Origin: a bacterium
GTDB lineage: Bacteria; Patescibacteriota; Minisyncoccia; Phycocordibacterales; UBA2100
Direction: 5' to 3'
Length of the DNA stretch: 64,000 nt
Assembly: GCA_030647655.1 (NCBI GenBank)
Contig: JAUSJH010000003.1
Location: 11,013-75,012 of the forward strand
Shown: positions 12,212-64,000 of the stretch, piece after piece
Position numbering within the stretch: the first letter of the stretch is position 1
How the letters are laid out: each line of letters begins with the position of its first letter
Position numbers and translations under genes: made by a program
Notes under the pieces: model-generated
Told to the model about the DNA's origin: nothing
What the model saw: the letters and a program-made list of their open reading frames with translations, nothing else
Database searches by the model: none

Positions 12212-12757
12212 ATGGCGCTCTCGATTGCGATCGTTTTTCTCGCCCTGCAGGCCGCTGTGCTTTTTGCAATGGGTCAGCCGCCGATATCGACGAGCGGAGA
12301 GGTACACCTTTGGTGGGGGACTGTTTTAAGCTCCGGTAATTCACAACACCTCACCGATTGGTACACCTTTTCGCATATCATTCACGGTTTTCTTTTCTAT
12401 CTCGGGCTCTGGTATTTTTTCCCGCGAATGTCTGTATGGACACGATTCCTCATAGCCCTCGGCATCGAGATTGCGTGGGAACTCATCGAGAATACTCCTA
12501 TGGTAATACAGCACTACCGGGAGCAGGCGCTCGCACAGGGCTACACGGGCGACAGCATTATCAACTCGGTGAGTGACACGCTCGCAATGGTTATAGGTTT
12601 TGTAATGGCACGGCGCCTCCCCGTATGGACCATTGTCGTCATAGGGCTCGGGCTCGAGCTTTTCGTCGGCTTCATGATCCGTGACAATCTCACCCTCAAT
12701 ATCCTCAATCTTATCCACCAGTTCCCGGCTATCTCTGCGTGGCAGGCAGGTGGATAA
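12212..12757 (+). CDS. Polytopic membrane protein, hypothetical (DUF-type).
   Basis: Four to five TM helices, conserved-looking WELIEN motif. Confidence 0.4.
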   Translation: MALSIAIVFLALQAAVLFAMGQPPISTSGEVHLWWGTVLSSGNSQHLTDWYTFSHIIHGFLFYLGLWYFFPRMSVWTRFLIALGIEIAWELIENTPMVIQHYREQALAQGYTGDSIINSVSDTLAMVIGFVMARRLPVWTIVVIGLGLELFVGFMIRDNLTLNILNLIHQFPAISAWQAGG

Positions 12758-12796
12758 CTTTGTTGCGTCTGCAAAGCGGAAGTTCAGAATAGAGCT

Positions 12797-22252: not shown

Positions 22253-22915
22253 ATGCAAAAATTCGGAGAAAGACAGAAACGAGCGCGTAGGCTTGTCGCG
22301 TACCTCAAAAAAGCGTATCCCAACCCTAAAACAGAACTCCACTATAAAACACCATTTCAGCTTGTCGTTGCGGTCGTGATGTCGGCGCAATGTACGGACA
22401 AGATTGTGAATCGTGTTACGGAAAAGCTTTTTAGAAAATACAAAAAACCCTCCTGTTTTGCAAATGCAAAGCCGCAGGTATTTGAACGCGAAATATCTTC
22501 AATCCCGTTCTTTAGGAACAAAGCGAAGCACATTATAGCGGCCGCGAAAATCATCTCCGGTGACTTTCGCGGCCGCGTGCCGCACACGGCGAAAGAACTC
22601 CAAACACTTCCCGGCGTCGGATACAAGACCGCGCACGTGATTTTGGGTGAACTATATGACACGTGGGAAGGTATACCGACCGACACGCATGTGAAGCGAT
22701 TTGCTAAGCGTTTTGATCTGACGGACGAGAATGACCTCACCAAAATATCAAAGGATTTGGAGGCGCTAATTCCGAAAAAAGATTGGAAATACGTCAACAA
22801 CGGCCTCGTTCTCCACGGCCGCTATGTCTGCCCCGCCCACCCGCATGATTGCCTCGCGCATCCGCTCACCAAACTCTGGCCCCTGGCCGCAAAGCGCTGG
22901 CCCAAAACCCGCTAG
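22253..22915 (+). CDS. nth: Endonuclease III family HhH-GPD DNA glycosylase.
   Basis: HhH-GPD motif LPGVGYKTAHVILGE...D. The C-terminus has only two Cys (CPAHPHDC), not the four-Cys Fe-S loop. Confidence 0.8.
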   Translation: MQKFGERQKRARRLVAYLKKAYPNPKTELHYKTPFQLVVAVVMSAQCTDKIVNRVTEKLFRKYKKPSCFANAKPQVFEREISSIPFFRNKAKHIIAAAKIISGDFRGRVPHTAKELQTLPGVGYKTAHVILGELYDTWEGIPTDTHVKRFAKRFDLTDENDLTKISKDLEALIPKKDWKYVNNGLVLHGRYVCPAHPHDCLAHPLTKLWPLAAKRWPKTR

Positions 22916-34467: not shown

Positions 34468-34500
34468 GCGCGGCACCAATATTGGCGCCGCGCTGGTATT
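34468..34500 (+). terminator. Near-perfect 26-nt palindrome (GCGCGGCACCAATATTGGCGCCGCGC) after groEL; probable terminator.
   Basis: Long GC-rich hairpin followed by a T-rich tail. Lies between the groEL stop and the ATG of the giant gene. Confidence 0.45.
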
Positions 34501-34508
34501 ATAGAAGC

Positions 34509-37500
34509 ATGTACTGGCCTCGCGTTGCGGGAGTTTTCGGGGCATCCCTGTTATTTTTTATGTTGGCGAGTGCACCATTTGTGTATGCGAAGGATAGAGC
34601 CGCTGATGCGATGTGCCTTCCTCCCGACGACACTCACGGATACAAAAAGGGTTTGGAATATGATGCTCTGTACAAAGACGGTGATAAGGAAAAGCGGAAT
34701 TTATACAACAAGAAATGCTTCGATGATTTCGTAACAGGAATATGTGACCGTGAGGATTATTGCGAGGGAAAGCAATGTTTCAGTGATGGAAAGTGGGGTA
34801 ATTGTGAGCTCTATCACCAGAAGACCACGAACGGCCAGATTCAGAACTGCTACGTCGGAGTTCTTGACTGCTCAAAACCATATACTCCCGGACAGGGCAC
34901 GGGGGTTGCACCTCCGCCATCGGAAAATCCTTCGCTTCCGCCACTCACACACGACGGTAAATCCATTCTGCAGACACTGCAAGATAATGAGCAACCGTCG
35001 GGTCCACTGCCCCAATCTGCGAACAACGTGCAGCAATTAATCGAGCAGGCTGCGCAAAATCCGGACACGCCATGGTCGCTTGAAGGTATTAAGAACGTAC
35101 TAAACGATGTACGAAGTTTCCTTTCTCCGGAATCAGCCACTTTTCTCACGCCGACACCACAAGAATCGGGAGCGGTAAATGAACAGTCTCAACGGACGGA
35201 TGAAATTACAGGATTGCCTGTCACTGATACATTCGGACAACCGCAAACGCAAACAGAGCAAAAGACCTCTTTTTTGGATACGTTGGGTGAAGCATGGAAA
35301 GAGGTGAAAAGTGCCGTGAGTGACGCTGGTACGTGGATTGCCGATCTCGTCACTCCAAATCCGGAAGAGACACCAACCAATCCAGCTAATGGTTTTGCCG
35401 AGAATAATGCAGCATTGACCGACCCTGATGTTAAGTCAGATGTTCCTCCCACCATTCCGCCGGACCAAATAGCTTCTCGAGAACCCAGTGTCTCTGAAAC
35501 TCCAAAAGAATCAGTAGATAGAGCTCAAGGAATAGCGAGCGTTCAGCCTACTGCGAAAGAATCATCGCCGACGTCACCGAACGTAGGGCCCACAGCAAGT
35601 CCGGACATAGTCAAAAAAGCCGCACAAGCACTCTCTGATGCAACAGAAGCGTTCGGTGCCGCCCGCGGCTATTCGAAGGAAGGAATGGAGAATGTAAAGG
35701 GCGGTCTCGGCGCGCTCGCCCAGATGGAATCGAGGTTCGATCCAAGTATCGGTTGTAACGAACCCGGCTACTGCGGCTTCGGACAGCTCTCTGAAGGGAA
35801 GAGCAGTTCGCACGAAAATGAAACTGCGCTTGCACGTAACACACTTGGCGCTCTTTCCCAATCGCCAAACTTGAGCCCCGAGCAACAAGCACAGGTGTCA
35901 CAAATAGTCGACCGAATAGACTCGATGCAAGCACAGGGAAAAAGTCCGAATGCAGATCCGGAAACAGGCGCATGGCTCCTTGCGGCTCGGCAGGCGCAAA
36001 TGACGGATATCGGTAAGAATGTCTCGCCGATGGATGCGGCGGCAAAATACGCGCAAACACCCACGGACGCTGCTGGGATTATGTTCGGCGCGCAGCTCGC
36101 CCCGTCGATGTATGGAAAAGGATTCAACCCGGACGCACCGCTTTCTTCGGGTGCTATCAATGCGTTCAACAGCAATAAGGTCTCTGTCCAGTCGGGAAGC
36201 ACGATGTCAGATGCAATAGCGGCCATGCAGGAGCAGCCGATATACAGGCAACGCTTCGCGGAGGGCATCGGTATTATAGGCGGGGGAACATATAGCAGTC
36301 CAGACCCATTAATCTCAGCAAAGCCACCTGGGTCATACTTTGATACAGCACTTCAGAACGGCGGTCTTTATCAGGAGCCGACTTTCCAGCAATCCGTGTA
36401 CGACATGTATGGCGAGAGTACCGACAATCAAAATGTTGCCGAGGCAGGTTTCCAGAACTACAACACCGAGCAAGCCGACACCGTTCTCAAGTTTGCCGCA
36501 GGATGGGAAGGCACGTTCGCAGGTAGTGCGCAAGAAAATGCAAACATAGCCGCTCAACAAGCCTTCAACACCATCGCCCACCCAGAAGACTGGCCGCAAC
36601 TTCCCGCGCCAACCTACGATCTCGACGCCGCCAACGCCGCAGAAGCTGTGCGTCTCGCAGAAAGTGGAGCTTTCGATTCCGGAGTCTCTCTCACGCAAGA
36701 GCAGGTCCAAGCCGCATACGATGCCGCCAACAACGAAGCTAACAAACCCGAGAGTTGGTTTAAGTCAAAAGTCGTCAATCCGCTTTACGACAATGTCATT
36801 GATCCACTTAGAAATTCTCTCGGCCTGAATTCGCCGCAACCGAATCCAGTCGTGCTTCCAGATTCGCGCTCGTTGTCAGACCGAGTAATCGAAAGCATTC
36901 CTTCGCCGCTTAAACCGAGCCCGACCATTGCAGTGCAAACGGAAAGCCTACCTCCGCCTATGGATTATCCAGCTTCGCAATTAACAGGCACATACTACGG
37001 ACCTAACGGTGAGATTATCAAAGCGGATGTAGCGGGAGTTGAAATTACGCAACCAAGGGGTGAGATAAGCGCGTTCATTCCATCGGACAAGCTTGGGAAC
37101 ATGACTGTTGGCGACGTGATAGCGCAAGCCAAGGAACGCCCGCGCACAGAAACAGCCCAGGAAATGGAGCCGTATGGCCCACCGGTTCCGAACCGTACTA
37201 CCCCGACGCCGGTGGAACTCGAAGCGGCAACCAAGATTTTAGACGACAAACTTTCGAGCGCCCGCACCGCTGTCGAGGTGGCGAAAGCTGTAGCCGAAGC
37301 CGCACCAACAGATTTCACCAAAGATTCAGTACGATTATTAGAACAGCGACTTGCGCAAATAGAGGAATACGGTCGACAATACCGGGAGTATATGGTTGCA
37401 GGTGGCCTACCGCCGGAATGGCTCTCGAATGCCGTTGATACGGCAAGAAAGGGTGAGGGATACATATCGCAGGGCTTATCGGCATTTTCGGACGCGGCAC

Positions 37501-40475
37501 ACGGCAACGCAGCGATGGCTGAAGCAAATCTTCGTACTGTCTGGGACGAGACGAAAAATGAAAGTAATCTATCGCTCTCGCAGATGGCGCGACTTACCGG
37601 GAACAGCCTATGGTGGGCTGCGGAATCCGCAGCCGGTCTCGTCGGCGGTGGGCTGAAGACAGGTAGCGAACTTGCGGGGCTGAGTAATCCGAATCTCGAC
37701 AACGCGCTCAAACAACAGCTCGACCCGGAAGGGGAAGGTATAAAAGCTGCGGCTATCATTGCGCCGTTTGCCTACAGCGGATTACGTCACGGAGGCGAAG
37801 CCGTGCTCGATCGGGTTTTTGGGGAGGTAGTTACCTCGGAAGTAAGCGCAGGTGCGCGGACAAGTGCCGTCGAGGCCGTTGGCGTCCGCGATAGTGCTGG
37901 ATTCGTCCAACGCACAGCTCCTGTCGAGGATCTCAGTATCGCACGGGCGACTCCCGAAGTGCCGCGTGTTGCGGAAACACCCCCACCACTTTCTCTGGCG
38001 GATTCTGCGGGGTCTTCCTTACCAAAGGCGGCGAATGTTGACCCTGTGGGAGATGTATTTGCACCGCCGACCAAAAATCTCGACGATGCATTCGCAAAGG
38101 TTGAGAGAGCAGCCGATGAGTTTAAATCTCCTGGGAGCGCAGAACCTTCCGCGCCGCCCGCGTCGGACAATCCTTTCTTGAAGGGCACGGATAATATTAC
38201 TCGTCGTGCGGCAGGAGAGGCGGAGGTGTCCAGTCCGGCGGCTAGTGGTATTAAAGATGCTGCTGCGGAGATTGACAGGATAGCGGCAGAAGCTCGCGCG
38301 GCGGCTAAAGCGCCAATTCCTGAGGTCAAACCTGCGGCGGAGGTGCCCGCTCCATCCGGCCCACCGAATCCGGGAGAGTACGTGCCTACTATTAAGGACA
38401 AATTTGCAAGTATGTGGGATGGTCTCAAGACAACGGCCACCGATTGGAGAGACAGGTTATTCGGCAGAGAAATCACCGAACCGGTAAAGGCTCCGGCCTT
38501 GTCTCAAGATGAACTTGCATTGCAGCGCATGACAAATGAAGGGGGCCCTGTGCCGCCGGAGCGCACCCCGTCCACCCCTGCTCCGGGGCTTGGGTCGCAG
38601 GGGGAGGCATCTTGGGAAGGCGGATTCGCGCAACGGCCCGGAGCACCCACTGTCGATTCCGCCAACTGGACTGGCGGCAAGGACTTCAAGGGATTTGATC
38701 TGACCACACCCGACTCCAACGCACCACTTCTTAAACAATCTCTTGAGGGTGACTTCATGTATCCACAGGCACCCAAACCACTTGCAGAAACAACCATTGC
38801 GCCCGCACCGCCTGTAGAGACAAAGACATTGTGGCAGAGCACAAAGGAACTCTTCGGACTTGGTGAAAAACCGTCGACACCAGCACCTTTGGCTCAAGCA
38901 GAACGTGATGCGTTGGCGGCGGGAGACCAAGCTCGTGTGGTGGAACGGACTCCGAGGCCCGAGGCGAGCGCAAAGCCATTGACCGACGATGAACTTGCGC
39001 TTATCAGGCAGGTAGAAGTGGGCACCGTGCCAAACCCGCGTACCGCCGCGCTGACACCAGATGCGGCGAACGTACCAGTCGTTGCGGACAGACCAGTTCC
39101 TGTATCTGAACCGTCTCTCTGGGAACGGTGGTTTGGAAAGAGCGAGCCGGCGGCAATTGAGACGCCAAAGGTAGCGGTTGTGCCTGAGACTACGCCAACG
39201 CCAAAGGCTCTAGATGCTACTGCGCCCAGAGCCGAACCGTCGCCAGCAGAAGCAACCCCTCCCGCACGGCCGGCTGCGGAGCCTGCGCCAATTGAGCCCG
39301 TGAAGAGAGGTAGCGGCGATGTTTCGAAACCGAACGCCGAGATAGCGATGGGGGATGAAGGCGCTGTACCGCTCAAGCCGGGCGCGGAGAATCCGTCCGG
39401 AAAAGTATGGAACGACAAATCGCTGACTCGTGATGAGTTTATTGCTGACTACAAAGCTGTCTATCCTAAAACCAGTCTCACCGATGCGCAGCTGGCCGAA
39501 CGATATGCCGTTGGACAACGGCTCAACCCAGAGACTGGCAGGCTGAAGGTTCCGGAGACTCAAGTAGCTCCCGGTATTGCTCCAGCAGCGCCGACGCCGG
39601 GCGGAGCAAAGACAGGCGGAGGTTCGTCAGCAGGATTGGACGCTTTGAAATCCACAGCAAGCTTTTGCACAGGCGGACTATTCAGATTCGGAGTTTGTGT
39701 CGGCGTTGGCGGCGGCATTTATTACGGAGTATCGAACCTATGGAATGGTCTCTGGCCGAGCAGCCAAACTCCACCGCCGAATGTGGAAACACCGCCAAAG
39801 GATGACCAAAGCACGGCCGTGCCGGATAAAGACAAGGATGCGCCGCCCCCAAGGAGAGAGGTCTCACCACCCTATCAGCCGCCAGTCGTTAGGCGCGATG
39901 TCGTGCCTATCGGTAGTGTGTATGCGCCACCAATCTGGAATCCAAATGGTGGTCCCATTCTCTCTCAAGACTATTACTGCATTACGAGCATTCAGCCCGT
40001 TATCGTTATTCCGCTCTCAGCCGGTTCGCAATTCCCGTCGAATTGCTACAACAGCTACTCGGGCGGACAAGGTGGTTCTGGGAACCCTTTCAGCATGCTC
40101 GGACAAATGCTCGCCAGAGCCTTAGGCATTCAGCCGACACCGCTACAGCCACCTATGCCGCAAACTCCGCCACCTACGAACCCCCCACCTATTATTATTC
40201 CGCCGCGGGCCACGTCGACTCCGCAAAAGCCCATCGTCACGCTCATTGCGAATCCGGCAACCGTCGCGCCTCAAGGCAAAGCGCGTCTCTCGTGGTCTAG
40301 CACGGGGGCATCAGTTTGCGGCGTCTTTATGCCGGACGGCGCGAAAATTGGAGAGGGAAATCCGGACGGTTCGACTTCTACGCCCCCACTTGCCGCCACG
40401 ACCGTATTTACCGCCAAATGTTCTGCGACGTCGGGCGCGACAAGCTCTGCGCAAACGACTGTAACTGTTCGCTAA
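34509..40475 (+). CDS. Giant (1989 aa) secreted low-complexity protein with Cys-rich N-domain, lytic-transglycosylase (SLT/lysozyme)-like motif and Ig-like C-terminus.
   Basis: Signal peptide MYWPRVAGVFGASLLFFMLASAPFVYA and 10-Cys N-domain. MESRFDPSIGCNEPGYCGFGQL resembles the family-1 LT ES-x-F-x-P...G-x-G-Q motif. Over 1200 aa of A/P/E/T/Q-rich linker with internal DELAL-R repeats. Gly-rich hydrophobic segment and Pro-rich plus Ig-like C-terminus. Confidence 0.6.
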   Translation: MYWPRVAGVFGASLLFFMLASAPFVYAKDRAADAMCLPPDDTHGYKKGLEYDALYKDGDKEKRNLYNKKCFDDFVTGICDREDYCEGKQCFSDGKWGNCELYHQKTTNGQIQNCYVGVLDCSKPYTPGQGTGVAPPPSENPSLPPLTHDGKSILQTLQDNEQPSGPLPQSANNVQQLIEQAAQNPDTPWSLEGIKNVLNDVRSFLSPESATFLTPTPQESGAVNEQSQRTDEITGLPVTDTFGQPQTQTEQKTSFLDTLGEAWKEVKSAVSDAGTWIADLVTPNPEETPTNPANGFAENNAALTDPDVKSDVPPTIPPDQIASREPSVSETPKESVDRAQGIASVQPTAKESSPTSPNVGPTASPDIVKKAAQALSDATEAFGAARGYSKEGMENVKGGLGALAQMESRFDPSIGCNEPGYCGFGQLSEGKSSSHENETALARNTLGALSQSPNLSPEQQAQVSQIVDRIDSMQAQGKSPNADPETGAWLLAARQAQMTDIGKNVSPMDAAAKYAQTPTDAAGIMFGAQLAPSMYGKGFNPDAPLSSGAINAFNSNKVSVQSGSTMSDAIAAMQEQPIYRQRFAEGIGIIGGGTYSSPDPLISAKPPGSYFDTALQNGGLYQEPTFQQSVYDMYGESTDNQNVAEAGFQNYNTEQADTVLKFAAGWEGTFAGSAQENANIAAQQAFNTIAHPEDWPQLPAPTYDLDAANAAEAVRLAESGAFDSGVSLTQEQVQAAYDAANNEANKPESWFKSKVVNPLYDNVIDPLRNSLGLNSPQPNPVVLPDSRSLSDRVIESIPSPLKPSPTIAVQTESLPPPMDYPASQLTGTYYGPNGEIIKADVAGVEITQPRGEISAFIPSDKLGNMTVGDVIAQAKERPRTETAQEMEPYGPPVPNRTTPTPVELEAATKILDDKLSSARTAVEVAKAVAEAAPTDFTKDSVRLLEQRLAQIEEYGRQYREYMVAGGLPPEWLSNAVDTARKGEGYISQGLSAFSDAAHGNAAMAEANLRTVWDETKNESNLSLSQMARLTGNSLWWAAESAAGLVGGGLKTGSELAGLSNPNLDNALKQQLDPEGEGIKAAAIIAPFAYSGLRHGGEAVLDRVFGEVVTSEVSAGARTSAVEAVGVRDSAGFVQRTAPVEDLSIARATPEVPRVAETPPPLSLADSAGSSLPKAANVDPVGDVFAPPTKNLDDAFAKVERAADEFKSPGSAEPSAPPASDNPFLKGTDNITRRAAGEAEVSSPAASGIKDAAAEIDRIAAEARAAAKAPIPEVKPAAEVPAPSGPPNPGEYVPTIKDKFASMWDGLKTTATDWRDRLFGREITEPVKAPALSQDELALQRMTNEGGPVPPERTPSTPAPGLGSQGEASWEGGFAQRPGAPTVDSANWTGGKDFKGFDLTTPDSNAPLLKQSLEGDFMYPQAPKPLAETTIAPAPPVETKTLWQSTKELFGLGEKPSTPAPLAQAERDALAAGDQARVVERTPRPEASAKPLTDDELALIRQVEVGTVPNPRTAALTPDAANVPVVADRPVPVSEPSLWERWFGKSEPAAIETPKVAVVPETTPTPKALDATAPRAEPSPAEATPPARPAAEPAPIEPVKRGSGDVSKPNAEIAMGDEGAVPLKPGAENPSGKVWNDKSLTRDEFIADYKAVYPKTSLTDAQLAERYAVGQRLNPETGRLKVPETQVAPGIAPAAPTPGGAKTGGGSSAGLDALKSTASFCTGGLFRFGVCVGVGGGIYYGVSNLWNGLWPSSQTPPPNVETPPKDDQSTAVPDKDKDAPPPRREVSPPYQPPVVRRDVVPIGSVYAPPIWNPNGGPILSQDYYCITSIQPVIVIPLSAGSQFPSNCYNSYSGGQGGSGNPFSMLGQMLARALGIQPTPLQPPMPQTPPPTNPPPIIIPPRATSTPQKPIVTLIANPATVAPQGKARLSWSSTGASVCGVFMPDGAKIGEGNPDGSTSTPPLAATTVFTAKCSATSGATSSAQTTVTVR

Positions 40476-56109: not shown

Positions 56110-57393
56110 TTACCCGAGCGAGCTGAAAAGATGCTCTGCTATGCCATCGGCAGGTAGTGTTATCTCTGCTCCACTCGAGAGATTCTTTATCGTGTAGCGC
56201 CCGCTCTCGCGCTCTTTTGCTCCGACCGCGATGACGAAAGGTATCTTCATTTTGTCCGCGTTGCGGATCTGGTCGCCGATGCGCTTTCCTGAAGAATTCA
56301 CCGCCACCGTCACATCCTCGCGCCGCAAACCTTGCGCGAGCTGTACCGCGTGCGACATCGCTTCTGGCTCGACAACGCAGAGCATGAGCTCCGTTGAGGG
56401 CGCGTATGCCGGCATGAGGTTGTGCGTCTCGAGAAAGTCGCGCGCTGTTACGTCTCCCATCGCGAAGCCGACCGCGGGAATCGACTCACCTCCGCCTGCC
56501 TGACCGGTAGGCAGGAAAAGCGAGAGTAAATTGTCGTATCTGCCGCCGCCAAACATGGAGCGGCGGTTGCTCTCATCTGTGTCGTATACCTCGAATACCA
56601 TGCCTGTGTAATAATCAAAACCACGCGTCACCTTCGTATCAACGACCATATTGCGTACGCCCATGTTTTCGAGGACCGTCCGAAGCTCTTCGAGGAAGCG
56701 GCTCGAGGTCGTGAGCTCGAGTTGCTCGAGCACCGAGGCGGCTTTTGCTCCGTTGCCTAAGGCGGTGGCGAGTTGTTTCTCGAAATCTTTAAGCTTTGCA
56801 CGTTTGTCCAAAAGCCGCGTGACCTCGGCGCGTAACTCCTCGGATACGCCGACGTTGTCGTAGATAGCGTTTAGTATCCTTCTATCGGAAACCCGTATCT
56901 CAAAATTGCGCTCGTCCGATCCGAGGGAGCGCATGATCCCGTGTGCGATTGCGATTATCTCCGCATCAGCCTCGACGCCAGAAGCTCCCACGATGTCAGC
57001 ATTCAATTGCCAGTGTTCGCGAAGCCGTCCGTGTTGCGGCCTCTCATAGCGGAACACATTTGGGATTGAGTACCAGCGGGCGGGAAGCGGGATTTCCCTC
57101 TGCCGTGCCGCAATCATGCGCGCGAATGTGGGTGTCATCTCGGGGCGCAGAGTCACCTCGCGCTCCCCGCGGTCGGTAAAGGTATAGGTCTGTTCGTTCA
57201 CTATCTCTTCTGATGTCTTTGAGCGATAGAGCTCGGACGGCTCAAGGATAGAGGCGTTGTATTCCTCGTAGCCGAAAAGCTCGCACACACGTTCCATGTG
57301 CTCGAAGAGGTATCGCTGGACGAACTGGTCTTCGGGATAGAAATCACGAACACCTTTGTAACTTTCGGTAGAGAGCTTTTCGCGCTTTGTCAT
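56110..57393 (-). CDS. hisS: Histidine--tRNA ligase.
   Basis: Class II motifs (GVRDFYPED; motif 2 region; GGGRYDNL) and C-terminal anticodon-binding domain. ATG start. Confidence 0.9.
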   Translation of the reverse strand: MTKREKLSTESYKGVRDFYPEDQFVQRYLFEHMERVCELFGYEEYNASILEPSELYRSKTSEEIVNEQTYTFTDRGEREVTLRPEMTPTFARMIAARQREIPLPARWYSIPNVFRYERPQHGRLREHWQLNADIVGASGVEADAEIIAIAHGIMRSLGSDERNFEIRVSDRRILNAIYDNVGVSEELRAEVTRLLDKRAKLKDFEKQLATALGNGAKAASVLEQLELTTSSRFLEELRTVLENMGVRNMVVDTKVTRGFDYYTGMVFEVYDTDESNRRSMFGGGRYDNLLSLFLPTGQAGGGESIPAVGFAMGDVTARDFLETHNLMPAYAPSTELMLCVVEPEAMSHAVQLAQGLRREDVTVAVNSSGKRIGDQIRNADKMKIPFVIAVGAKERESGRYTIKNLSSGAEITLPADGIAEHLFSSLG

Positions 57394-57416
57394 TCAAGCT
57401 ATTATACCGAAGTCAT

Positions 57417-57842
57417 ATGAAAACGATAGAGAAGCAGCTGATAGTGAAAAAATCGCGCCCCGGCTTGGGGCAAGGGCTCTTTGCCGCTGTGCCGATGGTC
57501 GCGGGCGACTTTGTTGCCGAGTATGCGGGCCCGCGCATACCCACATCACTCGCTGACACGCTAAAGAATCGATATCTGTTTGAGGTAGACGATACGTGGA
57601 CGATCGATGGCTCATCTCCGAACAATGTCGCTCGTCACATCAATCACTCCTGTGTGCCAAACTGTGAAGCCAAGCTTCAGAATGGTAGCGTGTTCGTGTA
57701 CGCAGCACGGGATATTGAGCGGGGAGAAGAGCTTACGATGGATTACGGCTCCGAGTATTTCGACGAATTCATCCGGCCGCAGGGCTGTAAGTGTTCGCGA
57801 TGCGGACGACCCACTACCCGCGCGCAGCGCGTAGTGAATTGA
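57417..57842 (+). CDS. SET-domain protein-lysine methyltransferase-like protein.
   Basis: NHSCVPNC (NHSC motif), ELTMDYG (post-SET ELxxDY) and C-terminal Cys cluster CKCSRCG. Start moved to internal ATG to avoid overlapping the hisS start. Confidence 0.7.
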   Translation: MKTIEKQLIVKKSRPGLGQGLFAAVPMVAGDFVAEYAGPRIPTSLADTLKNRYLFEVDDTWTIDGSSPNNVARHINHSCVPNCEAKLQNGSVFVYAARDIERGEELTMDYGSEYFDEFIRPQGCKCSRCGRPTTRAQRVVN

Positions 57843-59586
57843 GGATGACCACTACGTCGATGACCTCTTGAGTAAGGGCGCCCCATACGGGGGGGATAAA
57901 GCCGAGCGCCGCGATCGCCATGCCGATGACAGAGAACGCAACGCCGCCCCAAATACTTTGCGCGGCAACCCGCATCGCGCGCCGCGCGGTATCGAAAAGT
58001 TCGACGATGAGCATCACATCACGCCCGAGAATGACCGCGTCGGCAGCCTCTATGGCGGCGCTGTTTTCAGTACCGGAAAAGACGATGCCCACCTGTGCCT
58101 CGGCGAGCGCTGGAGCATCGTTCAATCCGTCGCCGACCATGGCGACCACAATATTGCGCTTTTTCATTTCATCGATCGCGGCAAATTTTGTCTCTGGCGT
58201 TTGATCGGCGCGGATGGGGATGCCAAAATGCCCGAACAGGCGTTCCGCATTCTCTGACTTATCACCCGTCAATATTTCCATTTTGACACCCTCCTTATGC
58301 AGTGATCGGAAAAGCGCAGAAACATTGTTTTTTATTTCATCTTCGAACCGCAGGCTGGCAATCTCGCGATCGTTCTCGAGCAGTGAGAGTATAATGCCGC
58401 CCGTAGCATGCACCGGGCTCTTTGTAATTGTGAAACGACTACCTGACACATCGCCCGCGATGCCTCTCCCGATGGTTTCGACGACATTCTTAGCTTCGAG
58501 GAGGGGCGCATTCCGTGCCGTGCGGGCGGTCAAGGTGGCTCGCGCGAGCGGATGGATAGAATGGAATTCTATGGCAGCGGCGATAGAAAGAATTTCAGTT
58601 TCAGAGCGGCGGGTATCGTGTGCCTCGATTGCGGAGAGCCGCGGTTCTCCAAGCGTCAGTGTCCCGGTCTTGTCGAAGAATACAACGCCGACGTGGGAGA
58701 GTTCTTCGAGGGTCGCGGGGCGCTTTACGATGATGTTCTTTCGCGCGGCCCGTGAGAGTCCGCCGATGAAAGCGACCGGCGCGGCGATAATCAATGGGCA
58801 CGGTGTTGCGATGACCAAGACGGCAAGTGCGCGGGAAATTTCGCCTGTGAGGGCGTACGCTCCACCAGCGAGAAGAAGTGTGATTGCGGTAAAGGGGAAG
58901 TTGACACGCTCGGCAAGCCGGACGACCGGAGCCTGATGTTTTTTCGCTTCGTCCACGAGGTGGACAATACGCATATATGTTGACGTCTCGAATCCTCCCT
59001 CGACGGATACTTCGATAGTCTCACCGACGTTTACGTTCCCGCTCTTTATGAACGTGCCGCGGGAGAACGTTATGGGGAGCGGCTCACCGGTTAGATTGGC
59101 TTCGTTCAAAAGAGCCTCCGAAGACCGTAGCGTGCCGTCAAGTGGGACGAGCTCATTCGGCCGAATAATTATTACCTCACCCTCTCGCACATCCTGTATT
59201 GGCTTCTGAATCGTTGAACCGTCCGACATTCGCACGAGACAAGATTTTGGGATCCGCTCGGCAAGTCCGCGTAGTGCGCTCTCGGCGCGCGCCGAGGCGT
59301 ATTCGTCTAGGCTTTCGCCACCCGTTATCATGAGCGCAACGACGGCACCGGCAAGATATTGGTCGGCGAAGAGAGAGACGACCATCGCGAGGAACGCTAT
59401 GTAATCAAGCGAGTACGCACCTCGGCGTATCTTTCCAAACGAGTCCCATACGATCTTCCCAAGACCAATGAAGATGCCCACTGCCCAGAGATATCCGCTG
59501 AAGGGGGAAGTCGATAGAGCCCCAAGCACGAGACATAGAAACACGACTATTGGCATACGGAACTCAGGGCGAAACATTCTTCGCAT
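57814..59586 (-). CDS. P1B-type heavy-metal-translocating P-type ATPase, without N-terminal metal-binding domain.
   Basis: DKTGTLT phosphorylation motif, MVGDGLNDAPALA hinge, TGES-like actuator region. 590 aa. Confidence 0.85.
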   Translation of the reverse strand: MRRMFRPEFRMPIVVFLCLVLGALSTSPFSGYLWAVGIFIGLGKIVWDSFGKIRRGAYSLDYIAFLAMVVSLFADQYLAGAVVALMITGGESLDEYASARAESALRGLAERIPKSCLVRMSDGSTIQKPIQDVREGEVIIIRPNELVPLDGTLRSSEALLNEANLTGEPLPITFSRGTFIKSGNVNVGETIEVSVEGGFETSTYMRIVHLVDEAKKHQAPVVRLAERVNFPFTAITLLLAGGAYALTGEISRALAVLVIATPCPLIIAAPVAFIGGLSRAARKNIIVKRPATLEELSHVGVVFFDKTGTLTLGEPRLSAIEAHDTRRSETEILSIAAAIEFHSIHPLARATLTARTARNAPLLEAKNVVETIGRGIAGDVSGSRFTITKSPVHATGGIILSLLENDREIASLRFEDEIKNNVSALFRSLHKEGVKMEILTGDKSENAERLFGHFGIPIRADQTPETKFAAIDEMKKRNIVVAMVGDGLNDAPALAEAQVGIVFSGTENSAAIEAADAVILGRDVMLIVELFDTARRAMRVAAQSIWGGVAFSVIGMAIAALGFIPPVWGALTQEVIDVVVILNSLRAARG

Positions 59587-59687: not shown

Positions 59688-60065
59688 ATGAAAAAGGGAG
59701 TGCTTATTTTCTGGCTAATCATCGTAGTGCTTATCGTCGTTGGCGTCGGGGCATCGGTCTTTGTGAAAGAGAAGCCGGGGCAACTCGACACCTTCGCGCA
59801 ATGCCTCAAAGACAAAGGCGCCATATTTTATGGCGCGTTCTGGTGTCCGCATTGCCAAGCAACCAAGGCGATGTTCGGTGGCTCAGCGCGGCTACTGCCG
59901 TATGTCGAATGTTCGACTCCAAACGGGCAGGGTCAGTTGCAGATATGTAAAGACAAAAGCGTACAACAGTATCCGACGTGGACATTCGCGAACTCGACGA
60001 CGACATTGACGGGCGAGCGTACGTTGCAGGAATTGTCGCAGGCAAGCGGGTGTCCATTGCCGTAG
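59688..60065 (+). CDS. Membrane-anchored thioredoxin-like protein (BdbA-like).
   Basis: N-terminal TM. WCPHC CxxC motif. Small (125 aa). Confidence 0.6.
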   Translation: MKKGVLIFWLIIVVLIVVGVGASVFVKEKPGQLDTFAQCLKDKGAIFYGAFWCPHCQATKAMFGGSARLLPYVECSTPNGQGQLQICKDKSVQQYPTWTFANSTTTLTGERTLQELSQASGCPLP

Positions 60066-60070
60066 TCAAC

Positions 60071-60601
60071 ATGTCGCTTGAAACGCTAAATTACGTACTT
60101 GCGCTCGGCATACTCGCGATGCAGATAGCTGGCGCTGGATTCCTCGCGCTTTTCTTTCTGCGTGGGAAATTCCCTGATCTTGAAGATGCCGGCCGATTTT
60201 TGGCAGATTGGGGACTTTGGATAGGATTTCTTCTTACGCTCGCGGGCGCGGGGCTCACATTGTATTATTCGGAGGTTTTAGGTTTTGTCCCCTGCGGATG
60301 GTGTTGGGTGCAACGGGTATTCCTCTGGCCGCAGGTAGTCCTCTTCGCTCTCGCTTTGTATAAGCGTGACCGTGCCGTCGCTGATTATTCAATCGCGTTT
60401 TCTATCTTCGGAGGTGCGGCTGCACTATACCAACACTATCTACAAATGGGAGGACACTCTGTCATACCATGCCCCGCCTCGGGCGCAGGCGATTGTGCCC
60501 AACGTTTCCTCTTCGAATTCGGCTACATCACATTTCCCCTCATGGCCGCGACAATCTTCGGATTCTTGATCGTGCTTATGCTTTTCGTCCGTCGGCGTTA
60601 G
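60071..60601 (+). CDS. Disulfide bond formation protein, DsbB family (BdbB/BdbC type).
   Basis: LYYSEVLGFVPCGWCWVQRVFLWP and a second Cys pair CPASGAGDC within a 4-TM protein; a BdbC-like pattern from memory. Confidence 0.7.
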   Translation: MSLETLNYVLALGILAMQIAGAGFLALFFLRGKFPDLEDAGRFLADWGLWIGFLLTLAGAGLTLYYSEVLGFVPCGWCWVQRVFLWPQVVLFALALYKRDRAVADYSIAFSIFGGAAALYQHYLQMGGHSVIPCPASGAGDCAQRFLFEFGYITFPLMAATIFGFLIVLMLFVRRR

Positions 60602-61156
60602 TCCAACTTACAGTACAGACTCGACCCAGTGCCGTTTAAAGTCAGTTATCCACAGCTTTATCCCCTCGGTTATCCACCCCATTTTACGGTCTTTTTGGGG
60701 CAAAATGTCAAATCTTTTGAGGCAAACTTTGATCTTAGGGCGGTACTGTTTTCAGAAGAAAAGATAGATACAGTAACGAAGTGTCGTCGTCTGGCGCGAT
60801 GTCATTTTGGTTCTAAAGGACAAGGCAGGAATTGAGACTGTCCGATAGGAATGCTTTTTGCTAAAGAACATATTGGAGTACCGAATTGTCCATTACGAAT
60901 GTCCTATAAGACATCAGGTAAGAGACATGAGATTTTTTCTGTAAATACTGGAAAGGGGAGCGTGCGGGATGTCAATGCGGACGTTTTATCATAATCGAAA
61001 ATGTTCTCGAGTAATTTCAAGAATGGACGAGAGTGAAGGTGTTATCCGTTGTCCACGGAACTTCATGTTGACCGCATGTGGAGCGTGATACCGTAGAAGC
61101 AGAAAAAGCTCTCTCATAACTTACCCATTTACTAGGATTCACAAATTTTAGAGCTT

Positions 61157-63673
61157 ATGACGTTGACATTAAAGAAAATGTCGGCTGTAGCGGCGATAAT
61201 CGCAGTTTCGCTTCTCGCGGCCAGCATTGTTTTCTTGGGAAACCAGCGTCTTGCTCAAGCCTTAGGTCCAATTAGCCCAATAGGTTCGATAAGTCCGGTA
61301 GGCCTGCCGTTCTCGGATCCGCCGACCGGTAGCCAAATTCTTTGTTATCTTAACCAGCTTGAAGAAGTGAACGGTTTTCCGGTATTACACCCACCACTTC
61401 CCATGTTCGACGTGGGTGAGTGCGCAGGGCCTGCCGTGACAGAATGCTCGAACGGAGATGATGACGATGATGATGGTCTTACCGATGCAGAAGATCCAGC
61501 GTGTCACACGGATGGCAACGCGGGCAATTCGAGCACGTACGACGGTTCTCTCGACGATGAATCTTTGTTCGTCGCGGAGTGCAGGGACGGGCTCGACAAC
61601 GATGATGACGGACATATCGACTTCCCCGATGATCCCGGATGCACGAATGCGAACGATAACTCCGAATCACCGGATCCTTCTCCCGCTCCTGAAAACACAC
61701 TCGCGCTGTGTTCTGATGGAATTGATAATGACGGAGATGGGCTAATCGATCTCGCCGATCCGGATTGTACAGCTTTTAAGCCAAAACTGGTTGTCGTGAA
61801 GACGGTGATCAACGATAACAGTGGCACGAGCACGGTCTCTGATTTCTCTCTCTACATCGGAACAACGACGTCCGCGACAACGTCGGTCATTTCTGGCGCA
61901 ACAACAACTGTCGCGGTGGACTCATGGAAAGTAGGGGAAATTCAAAGATCTGGCTACACAGCGACTTTCGGCGGTGACTGTAATTCGGTCGGAGAGGTAT
62001 CGCTCTCAGTAGGGCAAACTAAGACATGCAGAATCACGAACAATGATGTGGCGCCGGGGGCGCTCGCGTGTGCCGATGGCATAGATAACGACGGCGACGG
62101 ACTCATAGACATGATTGATCCGGGCTGCACATCTGCGCTCGATAATGATGAAACAAACACGTCGGGTGGCGGAGGTGGCGGAGGTGGTGGCGGAGGGACG
62201 ACCGGCACGTTGGTCGTCAAAAAAGTGTTCAGTAGCGGGACCACGACCCCGAGCGAGTTTGCGTTTACGCTAAATGGCGCCGCAACCACGACGTTTGAGG
62301 GCGACGGACAAAATGACCTTACCGTCGCGGCAGGTACATACACCGTTCTTGAAATAGCTACGAGCACCTACACGGCGAGCTATCAAAATTGCGGAGCCGT
62401 CGCGGTAAGTGTTGGGTCTACGACGACATGCACCATCACGAATACCCTAGTCGCCACTTCGTCCACGATGGGCACACTTGTCGTGAAAAAAGTCTTTGGG
62501 AACGGAACGACAACCCCGACGCTCTTCTCATTCTCTCTGAACGGCACTGCGACAACGACGTTTGACGCCGACGGACAGAATGATCTTCTCGTCGCGACCG
62601 GCACGTACTCGGTGCTTGAGGTCGCGAGCTCGACATACAATGCAAGTCACAATAATTGCTCCGGTGTGTTGGTAGCTGCAGGAACGACAACCACCTGCGT
62701 CATCACCAACACGCTTGCAACGAGTACGGCCGCGTGCGCCGACGGGGTGGACAATGATGGCGACGGCAAAATTGATTCGGCGGATGACGGATGTCACATC
62801 GGAAACAATCCGAACATGCCATATGATCCCAGCGATAACAATGAATCCAATCCGGTCTACTCCGACGCGCCTGGAGGCGGCGGCGGAGGGGGTGGCGGCG
62901 GAGGAGGCGGCCCGCCCGTCGGCTACATCGGCACAAGTGGTATCCCTTCGGGCTCGAGCGGTGTCGGAGGTGGAGGGGGAAGCCCGAGTACAGGCAGCGG
63001 TGGCCAGGTCTTAGGAACTTCAACGTCAGCGCCCGCGTCGTGCGATGCCTATCTGACAGCATTCATTAAATCGGGCCAGAACAACAATCCAGAGCAGGTG
63101 CGGCGGCTCCAGACTGTGTTGCGTGATTTTGAAGGCGCCAAGGTCGTTGTAAACGGCGTATACGACGGTGCCACATTGGCGGCCGTGCACGCATTCCAGA
63201 AAAAATACGCACCAGTGATTCTCGCACCATGGGGCATCACAGAATCCACGGGATACGTGTATCTCACCACGCGCAAGAAAGTGAACGAGATATATTGCCG
63301 CGGTACCAAGCAGTTCCCGCTCACTACGGGGGAATTGCAAATCATAAAAAGCTCGCTCAACTCACAAATGAGAGCTTCGAGTCCCGCGTATCTCACACCA
63401 AGTTCAAGTTCCGCGTATCTCACACCAAAACCGACTACCATTACGAGTCAGGCATCGTCTTCATTTTCGTCGTCAAGCATCGTCTCGCAAGTGGGAGGAG
63501 GTGTCTCCACGTCAAGCACATGGAACACATCACAGGGCTCGAGTCTCACTGCCAGCACCTCGGACCGAGCGGGGCCTGACAACAGGACGTGGCTATTGCT
63601 TGCCTTGCTGGTACTTGCCGCGGCTGGCGCGGGATGGTACTTCTGGTCTCGTCCTCCTGTGCCTTTAGGCTGA
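61157..63673 (+). CDS. Large (838 aa) cell-surface protein with signal peptide, five Cys/Asp-rich thrombospondin-type-3-like (putative Ca/metal-binding) motifs, poly-Gly tracts, three beta-sandwich repeats, a peptidoglycan-binding domain and a C-terminal TM anchor.
   Basis: Repeated C-x-DG-x-DNDGDG-x-ID-x-x-DP-x-C motifs (e.g. CADGIDNDGDGLIDMIDPGC). G11 and G13 runs. Two near-identical 80-aa repeats (GTLVVKKVF...TTTCxITNTL). PG_binding_1-like block (GVYDGATLAAVHAFQKKY). Terminal hydrophobic helix. Confidence 0.6.
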   Translation: MTLTLKKMSAVAAIIAVSLLAASIVFLGNQRLAQALGPISPIGSISPVGLPFSDPPTGSQILCYLNQLEEVNGFPVLHPPLPMFDVGECAGPAVTECSNGDDDDDDGLTDAEDPACHTDGNAGNSSTYDGSLDDESLFVAECRDGLDNDDDGHIDFPDDPGCTNANDNSESPDPSPAPENTLALCSDGIDNDGDGLIDLADPDCTAFKPKLVVVKTVINDNSGTSTVSDFSLYIGTTTSATTSVISGATTTVAVDSWKVGEIQRSGYTATFGGDCNSVGEVSLSVGQTKTCRITNNDVAPGALACADGIDNDGDGLIDMIDPGCTSALDNDETNTSGGGGGGGGGGGTTGTLVVKKVFSSGTTTPSEFAFTLNGAATTTFEGDGQNDLTVAAGTYTVLEIATSTYTASYQNCGAVAVSVGSTTTCTITNTLVATSSTMGTLVVKKVFGNGTTTPTLFSFSLNGTATTTFDADGQNDLLVATGTYSVLEVASSTYNASHNNCSGVLVAAGTTTTCVITNTLATSTAACADGVDNDGDGKIDSADDGCHIGNNPNMPYDPSDNNESNPVYSDAPGGGGGGGGGGGGGPPVGYIGTSGIPSGSSGVGGGGGSPSTGSGGQVLGTSTSAPASCDAYLTAFIKSGQNNNPEQVRRLQTVLRDFEGAKVVVNGVYDGATLAAVHAFQKKYAPVILAPWGITESTGYVYLTTRKKVNEIYCRGTKQFPLTTGELQIIKSSLNSQMRASSPAYLTPSSSSAYLTPKPTTITSQASSSFSSSSIVSQVGGGVSTSSTWNTSQGSSLTASTSDRAGPDNRTWLLLALLVLAAAGAGWYFWSRPPVPLG

Positions 63674-63884
63674 TATTTCCTGACTTGTTTAGCTATTCTT
63701 GTACGATACCGGCAGGTAGTTGACGTTTGCTCACTATATCCTTCATATATGAAGGAGCGTTGACCCCGTGAGATAGGCGTAGCGCCGCCATCTCATGGGG
63801 TTGACAGTGGGGGGCGCAGGTATATCTTGTGTGGCGGTCTGCTCTCTCCCATATTTTATTGTTTCTAGTAATTCTCCAAAAACC

Positions 63885-64000
63885 TATGACGTTGACACAT
63901 CAAAAGGTGTCGGCGGCAAGAGCGATGCTCATTCTTTCGTTTCTTGCGGCCAGCATCCTTTTCTTTGGAAACCAGCGTCTAGCTCATGCAGATGTACCAC
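63885..64000 (+). CDS. 5' end of a tandem paralogue of the 61157 surface protein (3'-partial at window edge).
   Basis: Start region ATGACGTTGACA... encodes MTLTHQKVSAARAMLILSFLAASILFFGNQRLAHA. This parallels MTLTLKKMSAVAAIIAVSLLAASIVFLGNQRLAQA of the upstream gene. Confidence 0.5.

Follow-up and report, generated by a model that had tools for sequence, protein, structure and literature searches.

What kind of surface protein is encoded by a gene that strings together Cys- and Asp-rich repeats, beta-sandwich modules and poly-Gly tracts, and why is it followed by a second gene that begins almost like the first? The two genes lie at the end of a 64,000-nucleotide (nt) stretch of a Patescibacteria genome (contig JAUSJH010000003.1 of assembly GCA_030647655.1; the whole stretch is called the window here). 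Gene 1 encodes a protein of 838 amino acids (aa), and gene 2 starts downstream of it and runs past the window end. The answer that we favor, likely although some way from secure, is that they are an old and conserved pair of paralogues whose products form stalks on the cell envelope, with Ca2+-clamped loops, locked sandwiches and a wall anchor. Its starting points are the domains present, the families they belong to, the gene order and the conserved promoters; from these we infer that the loops bind Ca2+, that isopeptide bonds form, how the cysteines pair, and the topology and role of the protein.

Repeats, sandwiches and anchor domain of the gene 1 protein

Gene 1 is a real open reading frame (ORF), and most of the features listed for it in an earlier reading of this DNA from its letters alone (hereafter the sequence-only reading) are present. 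The window is identical base for base, across a 6820-nt overlap, to L001, a public Logan contig from run SRR13727527 that is catalogued separately and whose independence as an assembly is not established. Gene 1 has more than 1178 homologues, most of the named ones in Candidatus (Ca.) Kaiserbacteria or Patescibacteria.

A regular-expression scan of the gene 1 protein returned five copies of the motif C-x-[DN]-G-x-D-[ND]-D-x-D-G-x-x-D...C (positions in Table 1). Consistent with this, the NCBIfam model NF033662 (acid_disulf_rpt) matched five stretches of the protein with 118.7 bits (cut-off 41, E 6e-35) and four stretches of the gene 2 product with 89.5 bits (cut-off 41). Judged by these profile matches, the Cys/Asp repeat belongs to an already catalogued family, the 'acidic double-disulfide repeat-containing protein'. 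The matches run from position 1 to position 27 or 28 of the 32-position model. Two disulfides (four Cys) in each unit would be expected from the family name; the repeats here have two Cys each, enough for one disulfide, and in gene 1 they are interleaved with beta-sandwiches rather than arranged in long arrays. The same repeat was also observed in 21-25 copies in Myxococcota and 'Deltaproteobacteria' proteins from metagenome-assembled genomes (MAGs) (L052 9572-13525; L054 5933-9889), and is therefore not confined to Patescibacteria. A run of six Asp, previously listed as a module, exists at aa 101-106 but sits within repeat 1 and is not a separate element.

The acidic loops had been likened to thrombospondin type-3 and other metal-binding repeats and read as Ca2+ sites. 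The family assignment failed. Pfam TSP_3 (PF02412) matched neither the full gene 1 protein at E<=1 nor the five isolated repeats or the three-repeat block at E<=10, Cu-binding_MopE (PF11617) matched neither the full protein nor the isolated repeats even at E<=10, and the isolated repeats gave only very weak EF-hand matches (E 0.43-1.3); NF033662 is the correct family. The mechanism, however, held up through a relative with an experimental structure. Teneurins were the sole matches in sequence searches of the PDB, both with the protein as query and with the family profile: the C-rich domain of teneurin-4 (7PLP) was matched at E 2.4e-3 and 7.4e-4, respectively, and further matches were to teneurin-2 and, weakly, to Drosophila Ten-m. 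In the 6cmx alignment, the upstream part covers what we take to be construct or tag sequence (an ENLYFQS stretch).

In the 1.5-Å structure of teneurin-4, the residues D840, D843, N844, D845, D847, D851, D854 and D856 coordinate three Ca2+ ions, sites I and II match thrombospondin type-3 coordination, and C838 and C857 form a disulfide (Meijer et al. 2022, PMC9058538). Repeat 3 of gene 1 (LCSDGIDNDGDGLIDLADPDCT, C185...C204) aligns with this core without a gap and has both equivalent cysteines. It keeps 8/8 of the ligand positions, while repeats 2, 4 and 5 keep 7/8 and repeat 1 keeps 6/8. Since their sole structural relative binds Ca2+ through matching Asp/Asn positions, the Asp-rich, Cys-bracketed loops of gene 1 are very probably Ca2+ sites. 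The stretch DNDGDGxID also fits the general DxDxDG pattern of Ca2+ loops.

The core shared with the teneurin C-rich domain is C-x-D-x-x-D-N-D-G-D-G-L-[IV]-D-x-x-D-P-D-C, including seven Asp and one Asn ligands, and in both cases the motif precedes a beta-sandwich (TTR in teneurin, SpaA_2 here). However, teneurin has a single copy of the motif compared to five in gene 1, and its six Cys with three disulfides (pattern 1-3, 2-5, 4-6) and its conotoxin-like C-terminal half have no counterpart here; the positions of C852 and C858 are occupied by Leu/Ala/Phe/Met/Ser and Thr/His, and no Glu stands at -3. Homology reaching into the teneurin TTR domain was rejected, as the profile match is limited to the Cys/Asp motif, and teneurin was absent from the top 50 Foldseek matches of the didomain model described below. 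Thrombospondin type-3 repeats (PF02412; PDB 1UX6) are likewise Asp-rich, disulfide-stapled loops, but no thrombospondin appeared in the PDB sequence searches, and the resemblance is one of mechanism, not of membership.

Between these repeats, Pfam SpaA_2 (PF19403) matched three stretches of gene 1 with 37.7 bits (cut-off 25), which bears out the suggestion of prealbumin-like beta-sandwiches: they are of the prealbumin/SpaA type. The sequence-only reading was also right about three modules (M1 to M3) and a tandem duplication, but not in calling the latter almost perfect. M2 (62198-62461) and M3 (62465-62722) share 62/89 residues (70% aa identity) and 66% DNA identity, and their longest common exact word has 12 nt. 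They stem from an old tandem duplication and have diverged too far for an assembly artefact.

The fold was modeled with AlphaFold2 (AF2) for a didomain of aa 178-336 (repeat 3, M1 and repeat 4), built on a 39-sequence alignment. The model had a mean predicted local distance difference test (pLDDT) score of 94.3, and its best Foldseek matches in the PDB were Gram-positive pilins and surface proteins (Spy0128/T-antigens, PitA/PitB, GBS52, SpyCEP). Folds of this pilin type are usually held together by an isopeptide bond between Lys and Asn, whose formation a Glu catalyses. In M1, M2, M3 and the gene 2 module, the first strand has a Lys, a central strand a Glu and the last strand an Asn, and the complete K-E-N triad was found in 334/383 modules of 122 family proteins. 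Furthermore, Lys and Asn are mostly lost together (contingency 334/3/29/17, Fisher p ~1e-14, not corrected for shared ancestry). Given that the triad is conserved and correlated in loss, internal Lys-Asn isopeptide bonds are predicted for the gene 1 sandwiches.

The Cys pair in each sandwich is nearly invariant across the family, and the junction 'ENTLxLCxDGxDNDxDxxxDLxDPDCxxFxPKLVVxK' is highly conserved, which suggests that a repeat and the following sandwich form one structural unit. The modules share with the CnaB/SpaA isopeptide domains of Spy0128, PitB and GBS52 the SpaA_2 match, the fold and the strand placement of Lys, Asn and Glu. They differ in that gene 1 is without LPXTG signal, sortase and pilin motif, and in that each sandwich adds a predicted disulfide and alternates with predicted Ca2+ repeats.

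The sequence-only reading had placed a signal peptide at the N-terminus and a peptidoglycan (PG)-binding domain followed by a transmembrane helix at the C-terminus, and hydropathy together with hidden Markov model and profile scans agrees with all three, the domain being PG_binding_1-like. The protein has two hydrophobic segments only, at aa ~8-30 and aa 811-830. The signal peptide would be cleaved after AQA, a site judged by eye, and the motif GNQRLA[QH]A is common to gene 1, gene 2 and their orthologues. Next comes a short, Cys-bracketed N-terminal cap (aa 36-96). The C-terminal helix (...GAGWYFW...) recurs in the orthologues P0001, P0005 and L056 gene A, and the tail that follows the helix in gene 1 reads SRPPVPLG. 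A motif scan found neither an LPXTG-like motif near the C-terminus nor a [YFW]P[KR][NDQ] pilin motif. The 20 cysteines of the protein are arranged as ten consecutive pairs, consistent with ten local disulfides.

For the domain between Cys629 and Cys714, PG_binding_1 (PF01471) matched the isolated segment with 23.5 bits (cut-off 23; profile positions 3-41 of 57). The same family was matched by 41/42 members of the gene 1 family (best E 5.5e-9), and the family profile of the C-terminal domain matched the PG-binding domain of the Streptomyces DD-carboxypeptidase 1LBU at E 4.5e-5. The AF2 model of the domain is helical (pLDDT 84.4). Its relevant Foldseek matches were few, namely CtpB, the SleB N-domain and the PG-binding domain of the AP3 endolysin, with local root-mean-square deviations of 0.9-1.9 Å. 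When species-representative genomes were scanned, no other part of the gene 1 protein proved as widely conserved as this domain, which was located close to the C-terminus of large, otherwise dissimilar ORFs in ~50 Patescibacteria loci. Because it ends so many unlike large proteins, the domain appears to behave as a general wall-anchor module, and PG binding is predicted. It shares the three-helix core with the PG_binding_1 domains of hydrolases (1LBU, SleB, phage endolysins). In contrast to these, it is larger (~86 aa between two invariant Cys), has an extra conserved PWG...TGYVYLTTRKK.NEIYC segment, and is joined to no hydrolase, but is the module in which many large surface proteins of Patescibacteria end.

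A conserved pair, its promoters and its Dsb neighbors

The second gene had been predicted to start at 63885 with the same signal peptide and taken as a sign of a tandem paralogue family continuing past the window. It is indeed a paralogue, but it starts at 63886, and its signal peptide is similar rather than the same, with 23/38 of the first residues identical to gene 1. On L001, gene 2 remains open for at least 501 aa to the contig end and encodes a signal peptide of the gene 1 type, four NF033662 repeats, one SpaA_2 module, a 16-residue Gly tract and a PG_binding_1-like domain. This marks it as an intact paralogue rather than a pseudogene fragment. A longer array, on the other hand, did not materialize: two other contigs contain a conserved two-gene pair and no third tandem copy, and no further paralogue is present in the 64-kb window, where the repeat and the C-terminal domain occur in gene 1 and the gene 2 start only.

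The two contigs are L055, a JGI contig of 481 kb with a small paralogue (P0060) that is listed under Ca. Kaiserbacteria, and L056, a contig of the Ca. Kaiserbacteria MAG GCA_016217925.1, to whose histidyl-tRNA synthetase (HisRS) that of the window is 80% identical. Going by this identity and by the named homologues of gene 1, the window probably comes from a member of the Kaiserbacteria lineage. In both, the order is HisRS (-), SET (+), metal transporter (-), a 126-aa thioredoxin-like protein (+), DsbB (+), further genes, and then the large followed by the small paralogue. The large paralogues have 805-808 aa and end in the same GAGWYFW helix as gene 1, while the small ones, of 483-603 aa, terminate in a basic amphipathic tail. 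Over the block of M2, M3 and repeat 5, gene 1 and L056 gene A share 70% identity; gene 2 and L056 gene B share 60% over 499 aa. As each paralogue has an orthologue in the same order in L055 and L056, genes 1 and 2 are an ancient orthologous pair and not a growing array. The broader claim that the locus encodes secreted or anchored surface proteins in a tandem paralogous pair is supported. After the pair, L055 and L056 encode other secreted proteins, including one of ~1200 aa with the same anchor domain. Judging by these relatives, gene 2 would end after ~480-600 aa in such a tail, and proteins of ~230, 180 and 146 aa and a SpaA_2 protein of 650-990 aa would be expected in the secreted set behind it, along with the ~1200-aa one. 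Most members of the small-paralogue type (homologues P0004-P0070; L055 12781-14232; L056 10001-11812) end in the basic amphipathic tail, e.g. KSLWQRLLDVVKGARGQ or FWERVLDFLRGR, and not in a transmembrane helix; this tail may be an alternative membrane- or wall-association signal.

Upstream of gene 1 lie genes for a thioredoxin-fold protein with an N-terminal hydrophobic anchor and for a DsbB-family protein (Table 1). Orthologues of the former are found at the matching place in the gene order of both L055 and L056. The start listed for the DsbB ORF is 59978; its probable start is the ATG at 60071, which aligns with the N-terminus MPVETLNY of the L056 orthologue. A CcdA/thioredoxin/redoxin set is also inserted in the L055 neighborhood, and thioredoxin-DsbB genes are also found ~6 kb upstream of genes for proteins with the anchor domain in L015 and L018. 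Given the conserved neighborhood, the upstream thioredoxin (CPHC)/DsbB pair presumably oxidises the Cys-rich surface proteins.

Concerning the space between the two genes, the sequence-only reading had described 210 nt with three GTTGAC boxes, a perfect palindrome and an 11-bp inverted repeat, and had taken these as signs of regulated expression of the downstream copy. The boxes (63719, 63759 and 63800) and the palindrome (18 nt) are there, but the spacer measures 212 nt and the arms of the inverted repeat 12 nt with one mismatch. GTTGAC was rejected as an over-represented regulatory word, with 27 occurrences in the window compared to 30.5 expected; a copy inside each gene start encodes Met-Thr-Leu-Thr. 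The palindrome is not conserved in the spacers of L055 or L056. The only other perfect palindrome of at least 16 nt in the window (CTCGGCGCGCGCCGAG, 16 nt, 59281-59296) lies inside the P-type ATPase gene.

The inference of regulation was not supported, as the -35 hexamer of a gene 2 promoter that is conserved in three genomes overlaps the third box (63800) and the inverted repeat is likeliest a terminator-type hairpin of gene 1. In this promoter, GTTGACAG and GTATATCTT are invariant in a three-genome alignment (A3), whereas the spacer between them varies. A putative gene 1 promoter with the consensus TTGAC[CA]-15 nt-TACCGT across genomes shows the same pattern in a second alignment (A4); a simple sigma-70 scan did not call it. 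The ~90 nt upstream of gene 1 and of gene 2 align with each other better than any of 500 shuffles. Because of these conserved promoter-like sites and similar upstream regions, each paralogue would appear to have its own promoter.

On the simplest reading, the strong hairpin in the spacer is probably a terminator-type hairpin of gene 1 that abuts the gene 2 promoter. GUUGAC at both of its ends also pairs via G-U wobble and lengthens the RNA stem. The hairpin is without U-tract, an intrinsic terminator scan of the spacer found no canonical stem-plus-U-tract terminator, and Rfam gave no match at E<=1 on 60500-64000. A hairpin with the same base (GTTGACCCCGT...ACGGGGTTGAC; A[CT]GGGGTTGAC) but a different interior is present in the L055 spacer (12427-12780), at the upstream TTGAC box rather than at the -35 box as in the window; L056 has none. 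Such a hairpin could be due to insertion, independent evolution or a small mobile palindrome. A repeat resembling a miniature inverted-repeat transposable element or a repetitive extragenic palindrome, with GTTGAC as target duplication, was rejected, since the hairpin is single-copy in the window and no second copy of the exact pattern occurs in 56 loci.

A stalk model and its alternatives

Taken as a model, the gene 1 protein would be exported via Sec by its N-terminal signal peptide and folded oxidatively by the adjacent DsbA-like/DsbB pair. The C-terminal transmembrane helix would tether it, the Ser/Thr-rich spacer and the PG_binding_1-like domain would hold it in the cell wall, and the Gly-rich hinge would join this anchor to a rigid, outward-pointing stalk of Cys-bracketed acidic loops that alternate with three CnaB/SpaA-type sandwiches. 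By homology with the teneurin C-rich domain, each loop is predicted to clamp about two Ca2+, and each sandwich would be locked by a disulfide and the predicted Lys-Asn isopeptide bond; the N-terminal cap would sit at the stalk tip. Covalently locked, Ca2+-stiffened stalks are typical of adhesins. The protein may be a surface spacer or adhesin that withstands mechanical load, plausibly one that serves contact with other cells.

Several observations weigh against this model. Repeats 1, 4 and 5 are without an equivalent of D856, repeat 1 has an Asn at the position of D840, and the teneurin ligand E835 has no equally spaced counterpart in the repeats, so that the Ca2+ stoichiometry is uncertain. 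The Foldseek E-values indicate weak structural similarity, with ~5e-3 reached by the didomain and 0.4 or higher by the C-terminal domain, and PG_binding_1 scores 20.2 bits on full-length gene 1, below its cut-off of 23. The thioredoxin/DsbB neighborhood is missing from most of the more distant loci. Finally, the proposed function as spacer or adhesin is read from the architecture.

The poly-Gly tracts raise the question of whether the locus is a contingency locus, where slippage at (GGN)n hot-spots would vary linker length or switch expression and thereby create surface variation in the population. Slippage sites of 11 and 13 residues had been predicted, and these lengths are exact. They also vary: the gene 1 orthologues have tracts of 7 and 15 (L056) and of 10, 6, 6 and 8 residues (L055), the 16-residue tract of gene 2 corresponds to 9 and 9 in its orthologues, and the Gly run that is common at equivalent positions in the family ranges from 0 to 11 or more residues across homologues. 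In addition, tract 1 contains a 23-nt perfect 9-mer array. However, both tracts are made of mixed GGT/GGC/GGA/GGG codons with 80-87% regularity according to TRF (tract 2 ~80%), and there is no sign of an on/off switch, because a gain or loss of triplets or 9-mers by slippage leaves the frame unchanged. The window and L001 agree base for base, and the lineages that differ in length are only ~40-70% identical in their gene 1 and gene 2 products, which is compatible with slow drift of an unconstrained linker. Phase-variable loci are defined by a homogeneous short repeat that shifts the frame or the promoter spacing; the tracts are not of this kind, and the promoters contain no repeat. A contingency locus is therefore unlikely, and the tracts fit better with in-frame, length-drifting hinge linkers. 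Low-complexity Gly/Ser/Thr stretches and internal repeats are also known to trouble assemblers, and gene 2 is cut by the window end, which could point to misassembled repeats, a false duplication or a pseudogene fragment. Against this stand the identity with L001 (with the reservation on its independence given above), the absence of any exact word >12 nt shared by M2 and M3, the long gene 2 ORF with all family domains, and the full-length orthologues of both genes in the same order in two other genomes. Artefact or decay is thus scarcely credible and refuted as far as the data allow.

Another explanation assigns the loops to metal buffering or acquisition of the MopE type, with Cu or other divalent metals captured for the neighboring transporter. 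Tucker et al. linked the teneurin core to a diatom glucosidase, Volvox gametolysin and the Cu-binding_MopE motif (PMC3278476), and a metal transporter occupies the same syntenic position in all three genomes. We nevertheless consider this quite unlikely: PF11617 failed to match as described above, the sole structurally characterised relative binds Ca2+, the repeats are almost without the His, Met or free Cys expected for Cu sites, and the transporters are on the opposite strand and belong to two unrelated families. The sandwiches, in turn, recall a sortase-assembled pilus or an LPXTG-anchored adhesin subunit of the MSCRAMM type, as major and minor pilins of Gram-positive bacteria head the structural matches, SpaA_2 is matched, the K/E/N triad is conserved, and some distant homologues are fused to sortase or Cna_B domains. 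Yet no LPXTG-like signal precedes the C-terminal helix, a YPKN-type pilin motif is missing, no sortase gene was found in the neighborhood (window, L055 and L056), and anchoring would be achieved by the transmembrane helix and the PG_binding_1-like domain instead, which makes this explanation very unlikely. The pair of wall-anchored, Ca2+-clamped stalk proteins remains our preferred reading.

Wider context, coordinates and other loci in the window

Members of the candidate phyla radiation (CPR)/Patescibacteria are thought to live attached to other cells, by a machinery that is largely uncharacterised. A role in attachment has been suggested for the large extracellular proteins, rich in Cys, that CPR bacteria encode (Anantharaman et al. 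2016, PMC4736985). These Peregrinibacteria proteins resemble the gene 1 family in being of CPR origin, predicted extracellular and rich in Cys, in the presence of a disulfide-formation gene and in the proposed attachment role; their weak similarity to Myxococcus Cys-rich repeat proteins also corresponds to what we observed. They average ~1650 aa and have not been dissected into domains, unlike the gene 1 family. Literature searches on 'acidic double-disulfide repeat' and on Patescibacteria with isopeptide returned nothing relevant.

Every module of gene 1 belongs to a catalogued family, Cys-rich CPR surface proteins have been noted before, and the protein type is common. New here are the module anatomy, the assignment of teneurin-type Ca2+ sites, the predicted isopeptide triad, the shared wall-anchor domain, and the conserved module of thioredoxin, DsbB, large paralogue and small paralogue with its promoter footprints. 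The combination of Ca2+-type repeats, pilin-like sandwiches with a predicted triad, a shared anchor domain and a syntenic oxidation pair makes this family of more than 1000 homologues a tractable target for biochemistry and for labeling in cryo-electron tomography. It also provides a bacterial data point on the origin of the teneurin C-rich domain, for which Tucker et al. 2012 proposed a diatom enzyme (PMC3278476); current ideas are not overturned by it. A bolder and rather doubtful extension is that the large membrane-anchored paralogue, the small paralogue and thioredoxin/DsbB constitute a lineage-wide Patescibacteria surface organelle, that is, a Ca2+-rigidified, disulfide- and isopeptide-locked, wall-anchored stalk that sets or mediates contact between episymbiont and host. 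As a corollary, the bacterial repeat-sandwich unit, and not the diatom enzyme, would be the prokaryotic source of the teneurin C-rich domain.

Table 1 Features of the paralogue pair and its upstream neighbors (window coordinates)
Feature	Position	Strand	Basis and remarks
Membrane-anchored thioredoxin-fold protein (DsbA-like oxidase candidate)	59688..60065	+	Pfam Thioredoxin E 2e-4; CPHC at aa 53-56
DsbB-family membrane protein	60071..60601	+	Pfam DsbB E 1.4e-9, above cut-off; CGWC motif
Putative gene 1 promoter (TTGACC, 15-nt spacer, TACCGT)	61068..61094	+	89 nt upstream of ATG; both hexamers invariant in three-genome alignment A4, spacer varies
Gene 1, large paralogue, 838-aa predicted surface protein	61157..63673	+	Intact ORF; exact protein on Logan contig L001
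Signal peptide (predicted), aa 1-35	61157..61261	+	Hydropathy peak aa 2-14 (19-residue windows)
Acidic disulfide repeats 1-3, aa 97-116, 142-162, 185-204	61445..61768	+	NF033662, regular expression
Module M1, aa 208-300	61778..62056	+	SpaA_2, AF2, Foldseek, triad statistics; K215/E261/N295, Cys275-Cys291
Acidic disulfide repeat 4, aa 305-324	62069..62128	+	NF033662, regular expression; teneurin-4 7plp profile match falls here
Poly-Gly linker 1, 11 residues	62165..62197	+	Regular expression; 9-nt unit GGTGGCGGA x2.6
Modules M2 (aa 348-435) and M3 (aa 437-522)	62198..62722	+	SpaA_2, identity, triads K356/E399/N429 and K445/E488/N518
Acidic disulfide repeat 5, aa 527-546	62735..62794	+	NF033662, regular expression
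Gly-rich hinge (predicted), aa 573-612	62873..62992	+	Regular expression, composition; includes 13-residue poly-Gly 62873-62911
PG_binding_1-like domain, between Cys629 and Cys714	63041..63298	+	Pfam, profile, AF2; Cys invariant in family
Ser/Thr-rich low-complexity spacer, aa 735-808	63359..63580	+	Holds the 27-nt tandem repeat
27-nt tandem repeat, 2 copies	63376-63428	+	92% identity; encodes SSPAYLTPS/SSSAYLTPK in the Ser/Thr-rich spacer
C-terminal transmembrane helix (predicted), aa 812-830	63590..63646	+	Hydropathy
Perfect palindrome, 18 nt, TCCTTCATA/TATGAAGGA	63739..63756	.	Palindrome search; one of two >=16 nt in the 64-kb window
Strong hairpin, inverted repeat with 12-nt arms	63759..63805	+	Spacer fold z-score -2.9; one mismatch (G-U in RNA)
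Gene 2 promoter (predicted; -35 TTGACA, 16-nt spacer, -10 TATCTT)	63801..63828	+	Sigma-70 scan, 10/12 matches
Gene 2, small paralogue, start	63886..64000	+	ORF on L001; runs past window end

The window is ordinary chromosome and encodes GroEL, LepA, MurJ, RNase J and other housekeeping proteins. Beside HisRS, a small SET-domain (lysine methyltransferase-type) protein is encoded in all three genomes (window 57387-57842 (+), L055 1175-1573, L056 3962-4363). The transporter slot next to it contains a 590-aa P-type ATPase with a TPC motif in the window (57814-59586 (-)), and a VIT1-family member in L055 (1582-2103) and L056 (4444-4959). No VIT1 remnant was found in the window, and two unrelated metal transporters have evidently replaced each other at one syntenic position. 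The 555-nt gap between DsbB and gene 1 (60602-61156) has no convincing ORF; in the relatives, DsbB is followed by a minus-strand gene of 344-349 aa with a faint DoxX match, and tblastn detected no significant remnant of it in this gap.

Two further loci stand apart from the pair. An ORF of 1997 aa at 34482-40475 (+) has a signal-peptide-like N-terminus, 12.5% Ala, 10.8% Pro and 16 Cys, had no Pfam match at E<=1e-3, and is probably another large surface protein. An ORF of 733 aa at 22912-25113 (-) fuses a DegT/DnrJ-type aminotransferase with a FemAB-family/GNAT-type (Acetyltransf_6) domain, which, judged from these domains, is an unusual pairing of amino-sugar synthesis and a peptide-bridge-type transferase in a single polypeptide.

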